Notes under the pieces: generated by a model
Told to the model about the DNA's origin: nothing
The model's database searches: none
What the model saw: the letters and a program-made list of their open reading frames with translations, nothing else
Translations under genes and position numbers: made by a program
DNA from: Enterobacteria phage vB_EcoM_IME540
Length of the DNA stretch: 64,000 bases
Reading direction: 5' to 3' (one strand)
Sequence record: MT150133.1
Shown: piece by piece, positions 2,186 through 11,686 of the stretch
Layout of the letters: each line of letters opens with the position of its first letter
How positions within the stretch are numbered: the stretch's first letter is position 1

Positions 2186-2499
2186 CTCTTAGATTTAATT
2201 TTATCCAGTTCTTCTTGTATTTGCATTGTAACACATTTTTCTACATGAAGCGCTAGCTCTTCTTTTCGGTCTTCGGAAGGTGTTCCGAAATCAACCGACA
2301 CTTTTCCATCTTTCTCAATAACAATATTCATCACATAAACGATGTGAGCAGTGCCATCGGGTAAAGTAAGCATAATTTCCTGCTTAACCGATCCCATTGA
2401 CTTACGGATTATATCTAATGATTTCTCATAATAACGAGGGTCACTAGGACCCTCTTCGGTATCTTTAACGAAATTATCTAAATCAGATAAATCAGTCAT
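2170..2499 (-). CDS. 40: gp40-like head vertex assembly protein
   Basis: 109 aa ORF at the syntenic position between 41 and uvsX; size matches T4 gp40. Confidence 0.55.
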   Translation of the reverse strand: MTDLSDLDNFVKDTEEGPSDPRYYEKSLDIIRKSMGSVKQEIMLTLPDGTAHIVYVMNIVIEKDGKVSVDFGTPSEDRKEELALHVEKCVTMQIQEELDKIKSKRWWKW

Positions 2500-3664
2500 C
2501 TAAATCCATCTCTTCCAAATCGTTTTCGATATCAGCGGCGCTTTGGGCATTACCACCTAATTTAACAGCAACGTTCTTAGAGACACGAGAGTTAATAAGG
2601 TCGTTCACTGCATCGTCAACTTCTTTAATAGAATTAATTGCACCGAGCTTATACTTATTCTCGATTGCTTCACGGAACGGGGCATGTTTAAACAGCGGTC
2701 CCCAGAACTCGACACAATCGGTAGCTTTAGCACGCCATGCTTTTTCTTCTTGAACCATTTCGCCTGTGGTTTCGTCAAGGAATGCACGATTATACCAGCC
2801 AGCTTTAGGTTTCACGACAAAGCCAATATCAGTAGCCATTTCAAGCAATCCACTGAATGGGTCGATACCACCTTCGAAGTTAACGGTGATAGGGAACGTT
2901 GATTTCTCTTTAACCGTACGAGATTTCTCAGCCTTCAGTGTGAAGTCATAACCAGTGAGCTCGGTACCATCTTTAACCTGACGTTTAGAGATAAAGAACA
3001 CGGTAGAAGCAGAGTACAGAATACCAGTACCACCACCCATAATCTCTTTAGGATACATTCCACCAATTTCCATAGCCGTGTGGTTGATTGCTACACAAGG
3101 GATATCTTTGATAGTCAGATAAGGTGTTACGATACGGAACAGAGATTTCAGTGACTTAGCACGGGTCATATCACCTACAACTTTCTCGTTCAAAGCATCT
3201 TCGGTTTCTTTCTTAGAAGCAGTGTTACCAATGGAGTCGATAAAGATAATAACCTTTTCGCCACGAGTAATTTCTTCTAACTGGTTGGTCATATCAACTT
3301 TAAGCTGTTCGACTGACTGGATTGGTGTATGAACCACACGTTCCAAATCAACACCCATCGAACGGAAATAAGATTCTGAAGCACCAAACTCAGAGTCATA
3401 GAACAAACAAATTGCGTCTGGATATTTCTTCATATATGCCGCAACCATGGTAAGTCCAAACAACGTTTTAAAGTGTTTAGATGGAGCAGCAAAGATTGTC
3501 AAACCTGATTGTAAGCCTGCATTCAACGCACCGCCTAATGCAATATTCAGCATAGGGATACGAGTAGGAACTTCGTCACGACCATTAAACAATTTAGATT
3601 TGGTCAGGTCGGCGGTCATTTTAGAAGTAGAAGCTTTAATCAAACGGGATTTTAAATCAGACAT
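2492..3664 (-). CDS. uvsX: UvsX recombinase (RecA-like)
   Basis: 390 aa; N-terminus MSDLKSRLIKASTSK and overall sequence match T4 UvsX. Confidence 0.95.
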   Translation of the reverse strand: MSDLKSRLIKASTSKMTADLTKSKLFNGRDEVPTRIPMLNIALGGALNAGLQSGLTIFAAPSKHFKTLFGLTMVAAYMKKYPDAICLFYDSEFGASESYFRSMGVDLERVVHTPIQSVEQLKVDMTNQLEEITRGEKVIIFIDSIGNTASKKETEDALNEKVVGDMTRAKSLKSLFRIVTPYLTIKDIPCVAINHTAMEIGGMYPKEIMGGGTGILYSASTVFFISKRQVKDGTELTGYDFTLKAEKSRTVKEKSTFPITVNFEGGIDPFSGLLEMATDIGFVVKPKAGWYNRAFLDETTGEMVQEEKAWRAKATDCVEFWGPLFKHAPFREAIENKYKLGAINSIKEVDDAVNDLINSRVSKNVAVKLGGNAQSAADIENDLEEMDLDD

Positions 3665-3741: not shown

Positions 3742-4635
3742 TTAAAGGACCACGTCCTCATAACTTGGCATTTCGTGCTCAGAATGGATGTGGGCACCGA
3801 AATAAATGAATTCAGCCAGACCAGGATGGAATACTAAACTGGGATTCTCATGATAAATGATATGAGGTCTTGATTTCAGAATCTGATAATATTCAACCTT
3901 ACTCGGTTTGAATTTAATAATCTCTACATCAGGACGATGGTCTTCACGCTTAAATGAATCATTCGGATCGGTGATATAAAGGCGAGAACCTTCAGCCGCA
4001 GCTTGGTCTACAACTCTTTCGAATTGATAGCATTTATCTGAGATACGGAATGGATGGAAAATACCATCAATTTTAATAGGCGCTAGACCTTCAGAGTAAC
4101 GCTCAATTACTGCGGGATTAATTACCTTTTGGTCTACAAAAATCTTATCAGAGGACGCACCTCGTGACACCAGGACGTCTTTCTGACATTGATTCAAGAC
4201 TGTAGTATAAATCGAACGTTCAACTGAGGACACGTCGGTATCAATAAACTCGTCGATATAATAACGAGGAACTTCAGGGTCCATTGTAATGTTAAAGTTG
4301 AATTGTACAGTCTGAGTGCCATCATAACCTGTGATATCGGTTACCAATCCTGAGCAGTCATAGTATTCGATTAACGAATCAACAACGAACTCGTTTTCAG
4401 ACCAAAAATGTTTACGAGTTTCATAAGCATTTTCTTTATACCAAAGCGGTACAAAATTCAGTTCAGGAAATAATTCAATGCATTCTTTGATATCGCTCGA
4501 ATTTCTAGGATAAGCCAGATAATCACCTGGGCAAGCACGGTTTAAATGGAGTTGAAAATTACCGTCCTTAAGGACGGCATATTCACCTGTTTCGTAACTA
4601 CGCATACTGAAAATAGGAACGATAAACAAACTCAT
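3742..4635 (-). CDS. hypothetical protein (297 aa) at the T4 beta-gt position
   Basis: long ORF translationally coupled to gene 42 (ATGA overlap at 4632-4635); no resemblance to T4 beta-glucosyltransferase that I can recognise. Confidence 0.6.
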   Translation of the reverse strand: MSLFIVPIFSMRSYETGEYAVLKDGNFQLHLNRACPGDYLAYPRNSSDIKECIELFPELNFVPLWYKENAYETRKHFWSENEFVVDSLIEYYDCSGLVTDITGYDGTQTVQFNFNITMDPEVPRYYIDEFIDTDVSSVERSIYTTVLNQCQKDVLVSRGASSDKIFVDQKVINPAVIERYSEGLAPIKIDGIFHPFRISDKCYQFERVVDQAAAEGSRLYITDPNDSFKREDHRPDVEIIKFKPSKVEYYQILKSRPHIIYHENPSLVFHPGLAEFIYFGAHIHSEHEMPSYEDVVL

Positions 4636-5330
4636 TTCAGGAATCCTCGAACGTAGTCAAAATCACGTTCAAATACGTGTGCACTAACCATAGTATGGGA
4701 ATACGTACCCAGACCAACACCACACTGTTCAGCAATAAAGGCCATCAGTTTACCCTGCAGATAGAAATCCAGCTGCATAACAATAGCACAGTTCTGTGAA
4801 CGCATATGGGTATGTGCATAAAGACGTCCATCACGAATATAATATGTCACTGAATCAGTACATGGATATTCTAAGGATTCGTCAGAATCAAGGAGGGCTT
4901 GGTCTTGTTCTTGGAGAATTTGGAACACAACTCGTCTTGAGTTAGGCTTCTCTTTAAGCTCTTTAAGTAAGGCTGGGAGTTGGGCCACAATTCTAGGTCC
5001 ATAGAAAGTGTTGAAGTTTGCAGGCAATACGTCACTTTTCGGCTTATCAATGAACTTAGCAACATTAGGGTATTCCTTAAATGCTTCGGCGGCGTCAGTA
5101 CCACCAGAAATCATAAACTTCCAGAAAGATTCGGCATAATCATAGTTGATACGATTAATACGAGGGTCGGTGAATTTATAGGTGCTTGCATCCAGTACTT
5201 CTACCGAAGCAGAACCAATTTCATAACAACAGCCGATACGAGAATCAACTGCAAACTGTGGAGCTTCCAGGATTTCTTCGTTCATTTGCTTAAACGCGTT
5301 TTCAAAACTAACAGCGGTAATGTGTTTCAT
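4632..5330 (-). CDS. 42: dCMP hydroxymethylase (thymidylate-synthase fold)
   Basis: 232 aa; PCTDSVTYYIRD and RSQN motifs parallel T4 gp42 CTNTVQYLIRD / RSND; syntenic with T4 gene 42. Confidence 0.8.
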   Translation of the reverse strand: MKHITAVSFENAFKQMNEEILEAPQFAVDSRIGCCYEIGSASVEVLDASTYKFTDPRINRINYDYAESFWKFMISGGTDAAEAFKEYPNVAKFIDKPKSDVLPANFNTFYGPRIVAQLPALLKELKEKPNSRRVVFQILQEQDQALLDSDESLEYPCTDSVTYYIRDGRLYAHTHMRSQNCAIVMQLDFYLQGKLMAFIAEQCGVGLGTYSHTMVSAHVFERDFDYVRGFLK

Positions 5331-5863
5331 TTATTCACCTTATTTTCAATATATTCATTCAGACGTTTTAATTCTACCATATCGACGTTAAGCAAGTTAT
5401 TATGGCCGTCGTGATTTAAGATTTTAAACACGTTTTCAAAACATGTTTCATATTGCCGGATAGTTAGGTTGAACTCATCTTTGGTTAATTTAATAAGGTC
5501 ATCTTCAAAGTCTTTATCCAGTGGATTACGGGTTAAAATAACCTCAATAATATTGAATTCAGATTTAAACCCTTTCCAATCTTCCAGTTCTACATAAGGG
5601 TCCATTTCACCACGAAGGAATCCAGAGTAAACAATATTACTAGGATACCCACGGTCTAAGATGTAGACAAAATTAGGGTCTAAAAACTTATACAACGTCT
5701 CGACTAAAGCCTTGTCATTATCAGTCCCTAATGAAATGCATTTGCCATTAATCTTTTTAGGGAAATCAATAAGACGATATTTCTTATCAGATAAAAGTGA
5801 TTCAATTAAAGTAGACTTCCCGGAATTATCCGGGCCGTCGATAACAATGATTTTTGGTTTCAC
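5327..5863 (-). CDS. P-loop kinase, thymidylate-kinase-like
   Basis: Walker A IVIDGPDNSGKST and TMK-like DRGY motif (YILDRGYPSNIVYSG); 178 aa. Confidence 0.65.
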   Translation of the reverse strand: MKPKIIVIDGPDNSGKSTLIESLLSDKKYRLIDFPKKINGKCISLGTDNDKALVETLYKFLDPNFVYILDRGYPSNIVYSGFLRGEMDPYVELEDWKGFKSEFNIIEVILTRNPLDKDFEDDLIKLTKDEFNLTIRQYETCFENVFKILNHDGHNNLLNVDMVELKRLNEYIENKVNK

Positions 5864-6234
5864 GGATGATATGCCTTATAGGTTTCAAGAGTTCCTTCAC
5901 GAACCATTTCTTTAAAGTGGTCAGGACGGATTGCTCGGTCATCGATGATAAAAGTATAACTCGGCTTATGTGTAAGCAGATTGTGATATTTCAATCCAAT
6001 CTTTTCAAGGTTCTTAACTAATGCAGGAACTACTTCAACCAAGATTCGACCTGGGCCGCATGAAGTCATACCACGGGCAGTGAACAAGGTAATCTCGTAC
6101 CCTTCATCATAAAGCTTATTAATCACGGACACCATTTCGGTGTCCGGTTTAAAGTTTTCGTAATCACGGTCATCTTGCCAGTGAGTAATGGTATTATCGA
6201 TATCAAAACACAGATGCATTAAATTTTCTTCCAT
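5860..6234 (-). CDS. HAD-superfamily phosphatase (small, capless)
   Basis: all four HAD motifs: FDIDNT, LFTAR, HKPS, FIIDDR; alternative ATG at 6219 couples to upstream stop (TAATG). Confidence 0.65.
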   Translation of the reverse strand: MEENLMHLCFDIDNTITHWQDDRDYENFKPDTEMVSVINKLYDEGYEITLFTARGMTSCGPGRILVEVVPALVKNLEKIGLKYHNLLTHKPSYTFIIDDRAIRPDHFKEMVREGTLETYKAYHP

Positions 6235-7892
6235 TGTTTGTGGAGTTCGGTAGAACCTGTAGGTTTATATTTTACACCAGTTTCCTGGTCAAGCAAAACC
6301 CACTTATCAGGACAACGAGTGATAATTTGAGCCGTGATAGGGTCGCGAACTTCATCAACGAATTCACCTGTGATAAGCTTACGCTTACGAGGATGCCGCT
6401 TCAGCAGCACACTCAGTTGATATAGCCCATTGTAATAAGCGCCCAGAGCTTTCAGAGGGTTATTTTTAAAGTAACCTGCCAATGCCATCCAGATAACAGC
6501 AATCCAGAGCTTGTGCTTAAATGTACACATCGGAATATCATCTAAAGGCATAACCTTTTCAATATCAACGAATACACGAGTTCCGTTACGAGTTAAGCCA
6601 CCCCATAGAGGGTCAGAGTTAAATTTGTCATAACCATCGATAGAATAAAGCACCTTAGCTTCATCATAAATCGCAGGGCCTTTAGAACTATTACCAAAAT
6701 AACCACGTGGGTCGATGATTTTAATATTACCTTCGTCCGACAACATAATATTACTGTAGTGCGGGTCGCCATGAATAAGTTGGTACGGTTCTTTATGTTC
6801 AGACAGAATTTCTAAGGCGTGACGAAGAAGTTTTTCTGGGTCGCCTACCTTGAAGTCGTTAACATGGGTAATACCCTGTGGAGCAAAGCCTTCAATCAAT
6901 CCGGCAATAGAAGCATTACGAATAAGGACCTTGTCCAATACTTCTTTCTTAACATCAGAATACCATTGCTCATCGGATGGATTATCGATAGTTCCACCGA
7001 ATGAACGTAATGCACTAATGACCTTATAAACCATGAGGACTTTAGTTTCTTTAGACATAAACCGATAGGCGTCTGCCATGGTGCGACCAAAGATACGTTC
7101 CATTTTAATGAATTCACCTGGAGCAAAGTCTACAATGCTAGGAACGAATTCAGAATCAATAGAATTGTACCAATTGATTTCTTTAGATTGGATTTCTTTA
7201 CCTAATTCGTTTGTAGGTACTTTAATAGCTAGATTCTCAGTGAACTCTAATTTATTAAATTCACGGTTAATTTCAGAATCTTCATGGGCCTTAGCCAGTT
7301 TCAGTTTGTCACCAACATCAACTACAAAGTCTAACTTACGTTCAGTCAAATGGACCATTGAATCCAGGTTGTCAGCAAGGTCTTCACCATAATTAGAACG
7401 GTCGAAACCTGTCCAATTAGCCACCTGATACAAGCCAACTACGCCACCACCGGTACCAATTTCACGCAAGTACGGTTCTTCAAATGTAAAACGACAGTCA
7501 GTCCCATAGGTATAACAGTAGTCGTTATCCCACTCAACTTTATGACCTTCAGGAATAATATCACACCAGTTAAACAAGACATTGTGCCCAATGATATCTT
7601 CGGCAATGCAATCGATAGCATGAGCCGAACCATTGGCAACATCAACGTTACGAATAGTGAATTTAGGCTTATCACTATTAATCATGTTAATGGATTTAAT
7701 ATAGCCTTTAACGAGGTCGTTAAATTTGCTGTGAATAACCAGAATAATTTCATCTGATTGATTACTATACAAATCATACAAATGTTTTAATACAGTATGT
7801 TGTTTGTAGTTAACCAGTACCTTCGGGATTTCGTTGGTAATTGGATACAACCGTGAGCCAAGACCCGCGCCTAAAATAACAACCTTTTTCAT
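6219..7892 (-). CDS. bifunctional nucleotidyltransferase (N-terminal) / APH-ChoK-like kinase (C-terminal)
   Basis: N-terminus VVILGAGLGSRL (sugar-1-P/LicC-type NTase glycine loop); C-terminus LIHGDPHYSNIM...IIDPRGY (Brenner HGDxxxxN kinase motif); start trimmed to MKKVVILG with GAGGAA SD. Confidence 0.7.
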   Translation of the reverse strand: MKKVVILGAGLGSRLYPITNEIPKVLVNYKQHTVLKHLYDLYSNQSDEIILVIHSKFNDLVKGYIKSINMINSDKPKFTIRNVDVANGSAHAIDCIAEDIIGHNVLFNWCDIIPEGHKVEWDNDYCYTYGTDCRFTFEEPYLREIGTGGGVVGLYQVANWTGFDRSNYGEDLADNLDSMVHLTERKLDFVVDVGDKLKLAKAHEDSEINREFNKLEFTENLAIKVPTNELGKEIQSKEINWYNSIDSEFVPSIVDFAPGEFIKMERIFGRTMADAYRFMSKETKVLMVYKVISALRSFGGTIDNPSDEQWYSDVKKEVLDKVLIRNASIAGLIEGFAPQGITHVNDFKVGDPEKLLRHALEILSEHKEPYQLIHGDPHYSNIMLSDEGNIKIIDPRGYFGNSSKGPAIYDEAKVLYSIDGYDKFNSDPLWGGLTRNGTRVFVDIEKVMPLDDIPMCTFKHKLWIAVIWMALAGYFKNNPLKALGAYYNGLYQLSVLLKRHPRKRKLITGEFVDEVRDPITAQIITRCPDKWVLLDQETGVKYKPTGSTELHKQWKKI

Positions 7893-7952
7893 TATCTGTT
7901 CCTCAAGTGAATGTAGGTACATTATACACTATTTTTAATAAATTGGTATTGC

Positions 7953-8453
7953 TTAAATCTTATCTTTACCGATTTCAATACACTGTTCTATTGCCGCCGG
8001 TGCTTTGGTCTTGAGCTTATCGATTTGTTTCTTATAATCACGAGCTTTACCGAAGCTCTCGGTTTCGAGCATTTCGTAATAACGAGCCTCGTGGATGGAA
8101 ATCTGTAGATTGATATGGTTTACGCACATCGCATACAGTTTCTGCTTTTTGTACAAATCATCTTGACGCTTCATTTCTGCCTGGTGTTTGGCTAGTACCG
8201 CTTCACGCTTGGACTCTTGTTCACGTTGGAATTCGATTTCTTGTTGAGCATATTTTGCACAGTTATTACCGCATTGATTATTAGCTCGGGTGTACACAAG
8301 TCCAGAACCTGCACGGAATTTCATTTCGCCATCGAATTGTTTCTGTTCAGCTGCGATACGAGCTTTACCAACTTCATCGGCCGAAACTGTATCACCATAT
8401 TGGACCGCGCAACCTGATAGGAGCATACTCATTGCGATAATTAACTTTTTCAT
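7953..8453 (-). CDS. lipoprotein (signal peptide + lipobox LLSGC)
   Basis: MKKLIIAMSMLLSGC lipobox; charged coiled-coil-like mature part; adjacent to imm. Confidence 0.65.
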   Translation of the reverse strand: MKKLIIAMSMLLSGCAVQYGDTVSADEVGKARIAAEQKQFDGEMKFRAGSGLVYTRANNQCGNNCAKYAQQEIEFQREQESKREAVLAKHQAEMKRQDDLYKKQKLYAMCVNHINLQISIHEARYYEMLETESFGKARDYKKQIDKLKTKAPAAIEQCIEIGKDKI

Positions 8454-8460
8454 AATATCC

Positions 8461-8598
8461 TCAATTAAAACAGTTATACTTAATTTGTGCTATAAGAATA
8501 ATCCATCCAATGATGAGTGTCGGAATCATTGGGGGAATTGCCACTGCCCAATAAATGGTAAAGGCAGTCATTATAAGAAATAAAATAATTATTTTCAT
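8461..8598 (-). CDS. small hydrophobic membrane protein (45 aa, below ORF-track cutoff)
   Basis: ATGA overlap with imm stop at 8595-8598; MKIIILFLIMTAFTIYWAVAIPPMIPTLIIGWIILIAQ is almost entirely hydrophobic. Confidence 0.4.
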   Translation of the reverse strand: MKIIILFLIMTAFTIYWAVAIPPMIPTLIIGWIILIAQIKYNCFN

Positions 8599-8831
8599 TG
8601 CTTAACAATAATGATTTGTGCGTTTGATTTACGTTCAGCGACGATAGCCCAGATTAAAGCCACTACCCAACCAATCATCGTCCAGCCTAACAGGAGATTA
8701 AGGAAGAAAATTCCGACATTACTACGAGTGCCTCGCAGAAGAGCCAGAATCCATGGTAAAAAGTAACCGATGAACATAATAACCAGAGAACCGAATCCTA
8801 AAACACCAGCACTAACGATTAAAGCTTCCAT
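8595..8831 (-). CDS. imm: superinfection immunity protein Imm-like (two TM helices)
   Basis: 78 aa membrane protein with GWVVALIWA-type motif; syntenic with T4 imm beside gene 43. Confidence 0.6.
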   Translation of the reverse strand: MEALIVSAGVLGFGSLVIMFIGYFLPWILALLRGTRSNVGIFFLNLLLGWTMIGWVVALIWAIVAERKSNAQIIIVKQ

Positions 8832-8893: not shown

Positions 8894-11605
8894 TTAAAAG
8901 TCGAACATATCAAATAATGTTGCTTTTTTCTCGTAGTCGATTTTAGCAGACTCAGTAAAACCGGTCAGAGGTTTGATAAAGGTCTTTTGGAACAGTACGT
9001 TGTAGTCCATCCAACGGAGGACTTGGTCACGAATCTGAACCGGAAGTTCAATACCTGACGGCCATGCCATACAAGCTTCACCAAACGGGTTGCCTTCTTT
9101 AAGTGGCAGTACATATACCTTTTCACCATCAACGATACGAGGCATAGTCAAATCACCTGCAGAAGCACGCATGTAAGCTAAGCAACCTTTGATGTGGTAT
9201 GGACATTTAGAACCCGGGAATCCACCTTCATTATATTTCTCGATGTTGTTAGCACTGGATACTGCTGCAATGCTTACATAATCGAGTTCGTTAAATTCCT
9301 TATTAAACTGTTTGAAATATTCTTGCAAAGATGCCTCGCCTTCCTGAAGCATACGACGGATACATTCCTTCAGAGCTTTCTGAACTGCTTTAGGTGTACT
9401 TGATTTCTGAGTTTCGAGACCCATGATTTTCAAGTGTGGTTCAGCATAACGAGTACCTTCCATGTCCCAAACGTTAAGTGCATAACGTTTCTTGCCTGTC
9501 CAGAATCCACCAAGGCCTTTAGAACCAAGTGGAGGACCTGCGATAGCTTCTCGGTCCATGAACATCAAGTGTTGTTTGTTGTTCATGTATTCGCACATCT
9601 CACGGAAGCCTGCATCAATAGCTGGTTCCATACGTTCACGTGCAAATTTATCTAAGAAGTCTACCCAGTGGTTAGTATCACGGAATTTATCTTCGCCTAC
9701 TTTATTGATGATTGCATCTGCCTTAACATAAATGGAGTCAGTATCACCGTAGAGCACGAACTTCTGGTTTTCAGTCTTACACACGCTATTCAGATATTCG
9801 TTAACCTTACGTTCAATCCATTGGAGGGCCATTTGACCAAACAATGTGATTGCAGTTGCGTTCCTGAGGTCATAGTAACGGAACCATACGTTACCAAGTG
9901 CACCATAAAGGGAGTTGATAAGCAACTTACGGTTAATCTGAGCAGTGTTACCTGCAACTTCAGTGAGCTCGGCTTTCTTCAACATTTCTCTTAAAGAAGG
10001 CGCTGACAGTGCTTTAATCTGGGCTTTTATTTCGTCAGAGAAGTCAAAACGATAATCGATATCCAGTGGACTATCAACTGAGAGATTAGGATTTTCCAAT
10101 GCTTCTTTAATTAACTCACCATTACGTTGAGCTGCAAGCATGTAACCTTTATGTTCTTTACGCTGCAAGAATACCTTGGTGATTTCTGTCGGAATCACAC
10201 CTTCACGGTCTTTATAGTACATCATGCCGTTAGGAGAGCAACTGTAGGTGTCGCTAGGACGCTGAGCAGTTCCGGCAATATATTCATGTATCGGTGCGTT
10301 AGCGAATGTCCCTGCGATGGTCTCTGGGCTTATATTCACTTGTCGAATGATACTCGGATACAGAGATGTAAGGTCGAAACTCATTACATATTTGTAAGCG
10401 TTAGGAATCGGTTCCTTAACGAAAGCACCAGGATAAGGTTGGACCACGTGCGAACGAGCTTGTGGAATTACCTTGCCTTGTTCTTTAAGGCTATTAAAGA
10501 TAATAGCGTCCCAAGTCTTAATTGGGCTGAACACCGACTGAATCTGCATCTTGGCATAATAACCCATGTCCAAACTCAGAAGAATGAACTGACGCTTCAT
10601 ATCAATCTGCACTACACGATATACGTCGATAATGTTATAGGAAATATATCGTTGGTGGTTCGTCTCACGTAACTTGGAGATTGGGCCATCATATTTCAAC
10701 TTACCTACTTTCAATTCATATTCAGAAACATAATCCAGAGAATAAGAAGGCTGGTTGGTGAAGCTGAATTTTTTATAGAGGTCGATATAATCCAGAACAG
10801 AGATACCGAACAATGTAATGATTTCACGAGCACCGTACATGTTCTCAATAACTTTAACACGAGTTTTACGATGTGGGCTTAATCGCTTAGCAGTGTTCTC
10901 ACCGAACAGATTTTTCAGACGGTTATAAACGTACGGTACGTCAAACGACTCAACGTTCCATCCAGTCAAAATCACAGGAGTTTTCTGTTGCCAGAAATTC
11001 AAGTACTCAAGCATCATTTCTTCTTCAGAATTAAACGGAAGATAAACGATTTTGTCAATGATTTCCTGTGGAACTTCGTCACCACCTTCGTCTTGGAGTT
11101 TCTCAGCGATTTTAATCGACCACTCTTCAACAGTACCATAAGGCGAAACTAAAAGGTCGAATACATAGAATTTATCGTCAATCGAGTCGTAGTGGGTAAT
11201 GGCATCGATAGGATGTTTAGCCTGAGCTGGTTCAGGGAATCCATCAGGAGATGTTACCTCGATGTCGAAGTTAGCAATACGAATCTTAGAAGAATCATAT
11301 TTGATTTCTTTACGATAGGTATCAGACAAATAGGCTAATTTATAGTCGTCCATACCCAGGGCTTCGAGACCCATATCATCCATACGTTTCATCCATTGGG
11401 ATGCATCACGCATAGAATCGAATTCTTTCTTAACACAACCCTTACCATAGATATCAATGTATTTTACGGCTTGCTCTGGATTAGCATGCATAAACATTGT
11501 AGGCTTGTATGGAACTTCACGACTACGTTCGTTACCATTTTTATCGATGTAACGTTCGAGAATATTATCACCGATTTGTTCGACTGTCAAATAGAATTCT
11601 TGCAT
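8894..11605 (-). CDS. 43: DNA polymerase gp43 (family B)
   Basis: collinear with T4 gp43; ORF-track TTG start trimmed to MQEFYLTVEQIGDN (T4 starts MKEFYISIE) with AAGGA SD. Confidence 0.95.
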   Translation of the reverse strand: MQEFYLTVEQIGDNILERYIDKNGNERSREVPYKPTMFMHANPEQAVKYIDIYGKGCVKKEFDSMRDASQWMKRMDDMGLEALGMDDYKLAYLSDTYRKEIKYDSSKIRIANFDIEVTSPDGFPEPAQAKHPIDAITHYDSIDDKFYVFDLLVSPYGTVEEWSIKIAEKLQDEGGDEVPQEIIDKIVYLPFNSEEEMMLEYLNFWQQKTPVILTGWNVESFDVPYVYNRLKNLFGENTAKRLSPHRKTRVKVIENMYGAREIITLFGISVLDYIDLYKKFSFTNQPSYSLDYVSEYELKVGKLKYDGPISKLRETNHQRYISYNIIDVYRVVQIDMKRQFILLSLDMGYYAKMQIQSVFSPIKTWDAIIFNSLKEQGKVIPQARSHVVQPYPGAFVKEPIPNAYKYVMSFDLTSLYPSIIRQVNISPETIAGTFANAPIHEYIAGTAQRPSDTYSCSPNGMMYYKDREGVIPTEITKVFLQRKEHKGYMLAAQRNGELIKEALENPNLSVDSPLDIDYRFDFSDEIKAQIKALSAPSLREMLKKAELTEVAGNTAQINRKLLINSLYGALGNVWFRYYDLRNATAITLFGQMALQWIERKVNEYLNSVCKTENQKFVLYGDTDSIYVKADAIINKVGEDKFRDTNHWVDFLDKFARERMEPAIDAGFREMCEYMNNKQHLMFMDREAIAGPPLGSKGLGGFWTGKKRYALNVWDMEGTRYAEPHLKIMGLETQKSSTPKAVQKALKECIRRMLQEGEASLQEYFKQFNKEFNELDYVSIAAVSSANNIEKYNEGGFPGSKCPYHIKGCLAYMRASAGDLTMPRIVDGEKVYVLPLKEGNPFGEACMAWPSGIELPVQIRDQVLRWMDYNVLFQKTFIKPLTGFTESAKIDYEKKATLFDMFDF

Positions 11606-11639
11606 TTCATTTCCTTTATAGACGAGTGATTGTCTTTTG

Positions 11640-11686
11640 TTTGTTGATGAATCATTATACTCCAAAAGGGACCGAAGTCCCTTTGC
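11640..11686 (-). promoter_or_regulatory. UUCG hairpin plus TATAAT upstream of gene 43 (candidate terminator / translational-operator region)
   Basis: minus strand AAAGGGAC-UUCG-GTCCCTTT then TGGAGTATAATGA about 45 nt before the 43 start. Confidence 0.4.

Follow-up and report, generated by a model that had tools for sequence, protein, structure and literature searches.

A gene of Enterobacteria phage vB_EcoM_IME540 (MT150133.1), located on the minus strand at positions 6219–7892 of the 64,000 nucleotides analysed here (the window), is very probably the Dhakavirus orthologue of AfhE (RB69 ORF53_52c), and as such would supply the activated sugar for the arabinosylation of 5-hydroxycytosine. Its open reading frame encodes a bifunctional nucleotidyltransferase-kinase of 557 amino acids plus stop, with matches to Pfam PF00483 and PF01636 and to PHROG 4098. 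[quoted passage not shown] The enzyme is already known, because Thomas et al. (2018) named gp43 of IME08 as a homologue (PMC6024577) and Lee et al. (2026) list the Dhakaviruses among the carriers of the arabinosylation cluster (PMC13326640). The family has been described and was characterised biochemically in a related phage, and the gene does not represent a new kind of enzyme.

The protein is 100% identical in the Dhakaviruses QL01 and WG01 (gp045) and Bp7, and its homologue in IME08 is 99.3% identical. The alignment with XAN60479.1 of HY126 spans the full length of the proteins (557 of 562 residues) at 43% identity (E = 7e-144), and identity to RB69 p052 and p053 is 41–44%. XAN60479.1 is near-identical in sequence to RB69 p053 plus p052, and from its gene position and architecture, together with the account in PMC13326640, we infer that it is AfhE. 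Our protein and AfhE have the same two-domain architecture over their full length, with the same catalytic motifs and residues. Homologues in Serratia 92A1 (47% identity) and Thanatos (TH1_060, 44%) belong to phages in which arabinosyl or pentosyl 5-hydroxycytosine was demonstrated by experiment (PMC13326640; PMC12838424), and TH1_060 is essential for propagation (PMC12838424). The gene had been thought unusual for a T4-like phage. T4 itself indeed lacks it, yet full-length copies are present in 367 phage records.

The position 6219–7892 given in the original prediction was right, although the strand had been left unstated: the plus-strand translation is riddled with stops, whereas the minus strand provides 557 open codons. 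These coordinates do not encode the 567 amino acids previously assigned to them, which belong to a mechanically called ORF at 6219–7922 (minus strand) that starts from an in-frame ATG further upstream. Judged from the sequence, the ATG at 7892 is the better start, because GAGG (7904–7901), part of a Shine-Dalgarno-like GAGGAA that can be read directly at 7899–7904 on the minus strand, sits 8 nt ahead of it, because every homologue begins with MKK(V/A)VILG, and because RefSeq annotates the same start in QL01. We also observed that a TATAAT overlaps the upstream ATG. A scan for promoters and terminators found site numbers no higher than in shuffled sequence.

The proposed fusion of a nucleotidyltransferase and a kinase was confirmed by a Pfam domain search, in which both NTP_transferase (PF00483; 34.3 bits, cut-off 21.2) and APH (PF01636; 26.1 bits, cut-off 23.2) exceeded their cut-offs. 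PHROG 4098 matches from end to end (E = 5e-269), and these domain and motif matches in the sequence are far above chance. The N-terminal domain (approximately residues 1–205; 7278–7892, minus strand) is a sugar-1-phosphate nucleotidyltransferase with the corresponding signature (G-x-G-x-R loop, K24, D111 and D192/D195), and its top fold matches are all nucleotidyltransferases. It is predicted to convert arabinofuranose-1-phosphate and UTP to UDP-arabinofuranose. The C-terminal domain (approximately residues 206–557; 6222–7277, minus strand) is APH/choline-kinase-like and a predicted D-arabinose-5-phosphate 1-kinase. It contains the Brenner H-x-D-x4-N motif and a downstream metal-binding aspartate, and ends in a tail of ~55 residues that is restricted to T4-like phages. 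All three motifs quoted in the original prediction are present in the minus-strand product of 557 amino acids, at residues 4–15 (VVILGAGLGSRL), 374–381 (HGDPHYSN) and 392–398 (IIDPRGY). Loss of catalytic residues was not seen in an alignment of 44 homologues, where the motif residues are invariant at identities down to 30%. The protein retains 62 of the 62 family-invariant residues in this alignment, including a D-P-R-G-Y-F-G loop and several basic residues, among which R325, R396, K413 and K481 lie in the kinase domain. A sequence search of the PDB yielded only distant nucleotidyltransferases, and found a solved structure neither for our protein nor for AfhE.

The gene cluster lies between uvsX and gene 43 (DNA polymerase), the same interval as in RB69 and HY126. 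In RB69, HY126 and DLP3, the cluster between UvsX and DNA polymerase makes arabinosylated 5-hydroxycytosine DNA. The adjoining genes are orthologues of RB69 gp45, gp46:47, gp48 and gp51, so that the interval includes a predicted dCMP hydroxylase and a putative DNA arabinosyltransferase. The HAD-family phosphatase (119–124 aa; 5860–6234, minus strand), the orthologue of RB69 gp51 and of the protein at the AfhF position in HY126, overlaps the 3' end of the nucleotidyltransferase-kinase gene and is predicted to act as arabinose-1,5-bisphosphate 5-phosphatase. It is 62% identical to both RB69 p051 and HY126 XAN60478.1, matches HAD-IIIA and the NCBIfam capsule phosphatase TIGR01689 (E = 2e-14), and is described as GmhB-like in Table 1 of PMC13326640. 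RefSeq wrongly calls it 'phosphoheptose isomerase'.

The P-loop thymidylate-kinase-like protein of 178 aa (5327–5863, minus strand; PHROG 761) is the orthologue of RB69 gp45, with 37% identity to p045 and weak Cmk/Tmk P-loop matches. The thymidylate-synthase homologue of 232 aa (4632–5330, minus strand) is a predicted dCMP 5-hydroxylase (5hodCMP synthase). It matches PDB 9iqu/9iqc with E = 1.7e-124 and is 78% identical to RB69 gp48, for which synthesis of 5hodCMP has been demonstrated (PMC13326640). The 297-aa orthologue of RB69 gp46:47 (3742–4635, minus strand; PHROG 3891) is 69% identical to p047 and 63% to p046, and gave no sequence match in Pfam, NCBIfam or PDB. It is the putative DNA arabinosyltransferase 1, a function taken from Table 1 of PMC13326640. 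The idea that the cluster is a horizontally acquired island is unsupported, with a flat GC content of 0.37–0.43. For this gene itself, the analysis establishes the domain folds, the conservation of the catalytic residues, the orthology and the genomic neighbourhood.

For the substrates, the order of the steps and the nucleotide, we rely on what has been published for the homologue of 43% identity. According to the text of PMC13326640 on He et al., the kinase of HY126 AfhE makes arabinose-1,5-bisphosphate from arabinose 5-phosphate, and dephosphorylation at position 5 by a separate HAD phosphatase precedes uridylylation. In our phage, D-arabinose 5-phosphate would be drawn from the host pool made by KdsD and GutQ, which is proposed as the source because the phage apparently lacks an isomerase of its own. 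The C-terminal kinase domain would then phosphorylate C1 with ATP to give arabinofuranose-1,5-bisphosphate, with D376 as the catalytic base (H374-G-D-x4-N381) and N381 and D394 as metal ligands. The overlapping HAD phosphatase would strip the 5-phosphate, and the N-terminal RmlA/MurU/LicC-like domain would join arabinofuranose-1-phosphate and UTP to UDP-arabinofuranose. Finally, the 297-aa transferase would place the sugar on 5-hydroxycytosine, which would enter the DNA through the thymidylate-synthase-like dCMP hydroxylase.

This scheme resembles NDP-heptose synthesis by GmhA (SIS isomerase), HldE/HddA (kinase), GmhB (HAD phosphatase) and HldC/HddC (nucleotidyltransferase), with the same four-step logic of an isomerase, an anomeric kinase whose substrate is a sugar phosphate, a phosphatase for the distal phosphate and a nucleotidyltransferase. 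In E. coli, HldE combines the kinase and the transferase in one protein, and the phosphatase is separate. However, the sugar would be a pentose here and a heptose there, the product would go to DNA instead of LPS or capsule, and the kinase has an APH/choline-kinase-like fold instead of a PfkB or GHMP fold. HddC is the best match of the N-terminal domain both by sequence and by Foldseek, but the NCBIfam HddC equivalog scores 19.8 bits, with a cut-off of 300. Several phage records annotate the gene as GlmU, which is wrong (TIGR01173, 21.8 bits; cut-off 366.85). The N-terminal uridylyltransferase-type fold is common to both, but our protein lacks the left-handed beta-helix acetyltransferase domain and has a kinase as its C-terminus.

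With the AfhE loci, the cluster shares the HAD phosphatase, the dCMP hydroxylase, the transferase and the Tmk-like protein, although the Tmk-like gene is positioned differently within it. In contrast, tblastn found no homologue of the arabinose-5-phosphate isomerase (API) in the window, the cluster has neither a U32-like gene nor a gp49 homologue, and in QL01 a second transferase like RB69 gp3 is missing from the place that it has in RB69. Neither a SIS nor an isomerase gene is annotated in the QL01 records, and Pfam detected no SIS domain in eight selected hypothetical ORFs of QL01 (152–212 aa, outside the span of the window; RB69 p055 as positive control). API was also not found beside the gene in Marfa and PSTCR6, and it occurs in 276 phage records compared to 367 with the enzyme. 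We rejected the idea that a 166-aa ORF at 7953–8453 replaces the isomerase without being homologous to it: the ORF gave no SIS signal, shows no relationship to the PSTCR6 ORF in the equivalent position, and has homologues in isomerase-carrying phages and in Gapriverviruses.

Elsewhere, API adjoins the gene in RB69 and HY126, a 316-kb contig has a SIS gene directly upstream of a homologue with 32% identity, and HAD, SIS, nucleotidyltransferase and kinase are fused into single chains in metagenomic sequences (P0068, P0074 and P0093). Fusions, SIS-gene neighbour and adjacency provide an independent link between the enzyme and arabinose-5-phosphate isomerase. Presence of the isomerase does not define the enzyme itself. 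E. coli produces arabinose 5-phosphate constitutively for Kdo synthesis via KdsD and GutQ, and a phage isomerase would therefore be dispensable. The API role of KdsD and GutQ is cited in PMC6024577. The Dhakavirus clade, which apparently has no API of its own, therefore probably draws upon host arabinose 5-phosphate.

The missing API, the divergence of the enzyme and changes in its catalytic loop count against our main explanation. Alternatively, the isomerase-less clade might use the same chemistry with another host pentose phosphate, such as ribose 5-phosphate, or another NTP, yielding a different pentosyl-5-hydroxycytosine, an alternative that we consider unlikely. It would fit the absence of API from the window and from beside the gene in Marfa and PSTCR6, as well as the excess of enzyme records over API records. 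The clade of Dhakaviruses, Marfavirus and Providencia phages has the most diverged copy of the enzyme in our comparison of T4-like homologues. Identity to the Mosigvirus RB69 is only 41–44% for the enzyme, versus 62–78% for its HAD, transferase and hydroxylase partners, and the clade has switched from HGDPNFSN to HGDPHYSN in the catalytic loop (N378H and F379Y). Furthermore, arabinose was not established as the sugar of Thanatos DNA (PMC12838424), and our literature search found no chemical analysis of Dhakavirus DNA. Yet, the host supply by KdsD and GutQ makes a phage isomerase dispensable, and only 16 of the 179 columns conserved in T4-like homologues outside the clade (mostly from API-carrying phages) are switched, most of them conservatively. 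The retention of all 62 family-invariant residues, including the D-P-R-G-Y-F-G loop and several basic residues, also speaks against this alternative, and the 63–69% identity of the transferase to RB69 gp46:47 argues for the same donor.

Slightly less probable still is a salvage-like order, in which the HAD phosphatase first frees arabinose, an AmgK-like anomeric kinase acts on the free sugar, and the product passes directly to the transferase. The original prediction implied such a salvage-like order, by analogy with AmgK/MurU (MurNAc recycling) and LicA/LicC (phosphocholine activation). In those systems the two activities are on separate proteins and the kinase product is the direct substrate of the transferase, whereas here one chain carries both, starting with the transferase, and in the characterised homologue a HAD phosphatase has to act in between according to PMC13326640, so that the pathway logic is instead that of NDP-heptose synthesis. 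The protein is also not a member of the MurU families (NF045697, 24.0 bits versus 370; NF045761, 20.1 bits versus 250). A kinase-transferase fusion would nevertheless suit direct hand-over, and the nearest structural relatives of the kinase half use non-phosphorylated substrates (choline, glucosamine, maltose and aminoglycosides). Table 1 of PMC13326640 likewise states that the C-terminal domain 'phosphorylates Ara to Araf1p' and that the HAD protein 'dephosphorylates Araf5p to Ara'. This order, with the phosphatase first and the kinase on free arabinose, conflicts with the text of the same paper, whose report on He et al. contradicts it. Moreover, the HAD protein best matches phosphatases of bisphosphate pathways (GmhB-like in the same Table 1; HAD-IIIA and TIGR01689), and the invariant R325, R396, K413 and K481 would fit a phosphorylated substrate.

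It is highly improbable that the N-terminal GT-A-like domain is a glycosyltransferase that adds the sugar to cytosine or DNA, a role suggested for Thanatos TH1_060. CDD does place the domain in the glycosyltransferase family A superfamily (PMC6024577), and Brandt et al. kept TH1_060 as a glycosyltransferase candidate after finding no pyrophosphorylase activity with xylose-1-phosphate (PMC12838424). However, the G-x-G-x-R-L loop, the invariant Lys24 and two acidic positions mark the domain as a sugar-1-phosphate nucleotidyltransferase, and all its top fold matches are nucleotidyltransferases. UDP-arabinose pyrophosphorylase activity has also been reported for AfhE (PMC13326640), and the cluster already holds a separate transferase orthologue.

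The assignment of the gene as the AfhE orthologue corrects three misleading labels that are spread over many phage records without all occurring together: the gene is called 'hypothetical protein' or 'GlmU', and the HAD protein 'phosphoheptose isomerase'. With arabinosylated 5-hydroxycytosine, phage DNA is protected against CRISPR-Cas as well as restriction enzymes, and becomes exposed to modification-dependent defences. The Dhakaviruses JS98, Bp7, IME08 and QL01 are therapeutic coliphages, in use or proposed, and a gene set that apparently includes no transferase beyond the first, and no isomerase, would predict their DNA chemistry and restriction profile. If the modification indeed relies on the Kdo-precursor pool of the host (KdsD/GutQ), this might be an exploitable host dependency.

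The nucleotidyltransferase-kinase gene at 6219-7892 lies on the minus strand: the plus-strand translation of this interval is rich in stop codons, and the reverse strand is open. The original prediction had correctly placed an open reading frame here, and only its strand and its length (557 aa, not 567 aa) had to be revised. Counted from the first ATG, the mechanical ORF spans 6219-7922 (-) and gives 567 aa, and the interval 6219-7892 encodes 557 aa, with translation beginning at ATG 7892. The latter is the better start, because GAGG lies upstream of it (7904-7901), because the resulting N-terminus MKKVVILG is common to all homologues, and because the RefSeq start in phage QL01 is identical. 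A perfect TATAAT at 7921-7926 (-) overlaps the upstream in-frame ATG (7920-7922, minus strand) of the 567-aa ORF; neither a -35 hexamer nor a MotA box could be recognised, and a consensus scan did not rise above shuffled expectation.

The structural reading of the original prediction, a nucleotidyltransferase and a kinase in one chain, proved correct. All three motifs that it had quoted (ILGAGLGSRL, HGDPHYSN and IIDPRGY) were located in the translation, and Pfam placed both domains above cut-off: NTP_transferase at residues 3-100 (34.3 bits, cut-off 21.2) and APH at residues 346-417 (26.1 bits, cut-off 23.2). PHROG 4098, annotated as function unknown, matched end to end (E 5e-269). When the protein was aligned with 43 homologues of 81% to 30% identity, the catalytic residues were retained throughout. 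Invariant in the N-terminal half were G10 and R14 of the G-x-G-x-R-L loop, P23-K24, G88-S89, W109, D111, D192, G194-D195 and K198; this is the set expected in an active sugar-1-phosphate nucleotidyltransferase, with its glycine loop, a lysine for catalysis and a pair of aspartates that bind metal. Invariant in the C-terminal half were K224, E238, H374-G375-D376, S380-N381 and the entire I393-D-P-R-G-Y-F-G400 loop; R325, Y409, D410, K413 and K481 were likewise invariant. They comprise what an active APH/choline-kinase-type enzyme among the eukaryotic-like kinases should have: the ATP lysine with its glutamate partner, the Brenner H-x-D-x4-N motif and the downstream metal aspartate.

The AlphaFold2 model built with the same 44-sequence alignment reached a mean pLDDT of 92.3 and a pTM of 0.88. 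Foldseek against the PDB returned HddC, RmlA, GalU, MurU and inositol-phosphate cytidylyltransferases (E ~1e-7 to 1e-8) as well as APH(2'')-IIIa. Structural matches of the N-terminal part were RmlA 4ecm (score 20.7), LicC 1jyk (19.7), MurU 4y7t (19.5) and HddC 6jq8 (18.4); those of the C-terminal part were the choline/ethanolamine kinase family member 3dxq (15.7), LicA 4r77 (15.5), glucosamine kinase 6hwj (15.2), APH(4) 3tyk (15.2) and maltokinase 5jy7 (14.9). The C-terminal tail of ~55 residues (~500-557; window 6222-6390 (-); …PITAQIITRCPDKWVLLDQETGVKYKP…QWKKI) is conserved in T4-like phage homologues and absent from distant ones (87-89% query coverage), and is the least confident region of the model (pLDDT 66-84).

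At the DNA level, this region shares 99.4% identity with Escherichia phage QL01; for the remaining 29 of the top-ranked records, among them WG01, Bp7, IME08 and MX01, the figure is 93-99%. These five named phages belong to the genus Dhakavirus, Straboviridae. The protein is 100% identical in QL01, WG01, PSD9, E33 and LHE83, and 98.4-99.8% identical in the remaining Dhakavirus records (IME08, 99.3%). The minus strand carries gp41 helicase (746-2185), gp40 (2170-2499), UvsX (2492-3664), a 297-aa protein (3742-4635), a thymidylate-synthase homologue (4632-5330), a thymidylate-kinase-like P-loop protein of 178 aa (5327-5863), a small HAD protein of 124 aa (5860-6234; TIGR01689/HAD-IIIA), the nucleotidyltransferase-kinase, a 166-aa ORF of PHROG 1754 (7953-8453), a small unannotated ORF (8464-8571), Imm (8595-8831) and DNA polymerase gp43 (8894-11665). 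The small ORF between the 166-aa ORF and imm has 58% identity (tblastn) to RB69 gp54, a hydrophobic protein of 36 aa. The corresponding interval in T4 holds gene 42 and the beta-glucosyltransferase gene.

The genes around it are orthologous to those of the RB69 cluster located between uvsX and gene 43. The 297-aa protein matches RB69 gp47 and gp46 (69% and 63% identity), the thymidylate-synthase homologue gp48 (78%), the P-loop protein gp45 (37%) and the HAD protein gp51 (62%); the nucleotidyltransferase-kinase matches gp53 with its N-terminal part (44%) and gp52 with its C-terminal part (41%). The P-loop gene is present in all these clusters, and its place in the gene order differs from that in RB69. 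RB69 gp52 and gp53 are a single gene, split through a sequencing error (PMC6024577; PMC13326640).

The literature settles the function of the RB69-type cluster. Thomas et al. (2018) detected arabinose on RB69 DNA and suggested that ORF53_52c (gp53 plus gp52) and the isomerase ORF055c serve UDP-arabinose synthesis; they mention IME08 gp43 by name as a homologue over the full length (PMC6024577). Lee et al. (2026) showed poly-arabinosylated 5-hydroxycytosine in RB69 and DLP3 DNA, demonstrated flavin-dependent hydroxylation of dCMP by gp48, and included Dhakaviruses among the genera with a syntenic cluster (PMC13326640). [quoted passage not shown] The cluster of HY126 (PP658200.1), found through its isomerase, is laid out as in RB69. 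Its nucleotidyltransferase-kinase XAN60479.1 (562 aa), by position and architecture presumably the characterised AfhE, is near-identical to RB69 p053+p052 and aligns over its full length with the Dhakavirus protein (43% identity, E 7e-144); the two HAD proteins share 62% identity. Three PDB entries that carry the label 'thymidylate synthase' (9iqu, 9iqc and 9ir2) match the hydroxylase at 4632-5330 (E 1.7e-124) and differ very little from RB69 gp48. Instead of the salvage enzyme suggested originally, the protein is the Dhakavirus orthologue of a UDP-arabinose synthesis family that was predicted in 2018, with biochemical characterisation following in 2026. Dhakavirus members already feature in both the earlier and the later work.

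The pathway would run from an isomerase through an anomeric kinase acting on the sugar phosphate and a distal phosphatase to the nucleotidyltransferase. This order of steps is like that of NDP-heptose synthesis, with GmhA, HldE/HddA, GmhB and HldC/HddC acting in turn. RefSeq phage records name the HAD-family phosphatase at 5860-6234 'phosphoheptose isomerase', a misnomer propagated through many records, probably because of this resemblance in pathway logic.

The full-length enzyme occurs in 367 phage records, compared with 276 for the isomerase; the claim that it is unusual in a T4-like early region does not hold outside T4 itself. The homologue of Serratia phage 92A1, whose DNA is reported to contain arabinosylated 5-hydroxycytosine (PMC13326640), has 47% identity. 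The homologue TH1_060 of Shewanella phage Thanatos-1 has 44% identity; it is essential, and the phage DNA carries a pentose on a C5-attached oxygen (PMC12838424). Three metagenomic proteins of 922-946 aa (P0068, P0074 and P0093) combine HAD_2, SIS, nucleotidyltransferase and kinase domains in a single chain, a predicted covering of all four pathway steps. They are strongly AT/Asn-rich and possibly come from a large virus; at one locus (L002), the fusion gene at 14-2854 is followed by a sulfotransferase gene. Thomas et al. had already described comparable fusions from bacteria, with the SIS domain at the C-terminus (PMC6024577). On a 316-kb contig (locus L011, 7297-9665), a homologue with 32% identity has an SIS gene directly upstream; the contig also has genes for topoisomerase II subunits and for a UvrD-like helicase, and looks like a jumbo phage contig inside the eukaryote-sized assembly GCA_013565635.1. 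The SIS fusions, the SIS neighbour and the homologues in arabinosylated phages lend independent genomic support to the arabinose link.

In the 64-kb window, tblastn detected no homologue of RB69 gp55 (the SIS arabinose-5-phosphate isomerase), gp50 (U32 peptidase-like) or gp49. No isomerase adjoins the gene in the clade nearest to it, comprising Dhakavirus, Klebsiella phage Marfa (80% identity), which retains the U32 gene, and Providencia phage PSTCR6 (71.5%). Pfam scans found an SIS domain in none of eight hypothetical QL01 ORFs beyond the window's span (the RB69 control was positive), nor is an isomerase among the annotated genes of the QL01 records. The 166-aa ORF (7953-8453, minus strand), at the RB69 isomerase position, gave no SIS signal and was rejected as its counterpart: it is an unrelated conserved gene, with homologues (28-50% identity) in Gapriverviruses as well as in Serratia and Enterobacter phages that have the isomerase.

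E. coli produces arabinose 5-phosphate for Kdo via KdsD and GutQ. Since the host already supplies this compound, the most economical reading is that the isomerase-less phages draw on the host pool. An alternative explanation, that the diverged enzyme of this clade has changed its sugar specificity, seems improbable. Its identity to RB69 is low (41-44%, versus 90% for UvsX, 83% for gp43, 78% for the hydroxylase, 63-69% for the transferase and 62% for the HAD protein), and 16 of 179 columns conserved in other T4-like homologues are switched in the Dhaka/Marfa/Providencia clade, including N378H and F379Y within the H-G-D-P-x-x-S-N loop; most switches are conservative, and gp40 (40%) and gp62 (50%) are similarly diverged. 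An RB69 gp3-like second transferase was not found in QL01 in the interval from rIIA.1 to gene 39, so the simplest prediction is that the DNA would carry a single arabinose per base.
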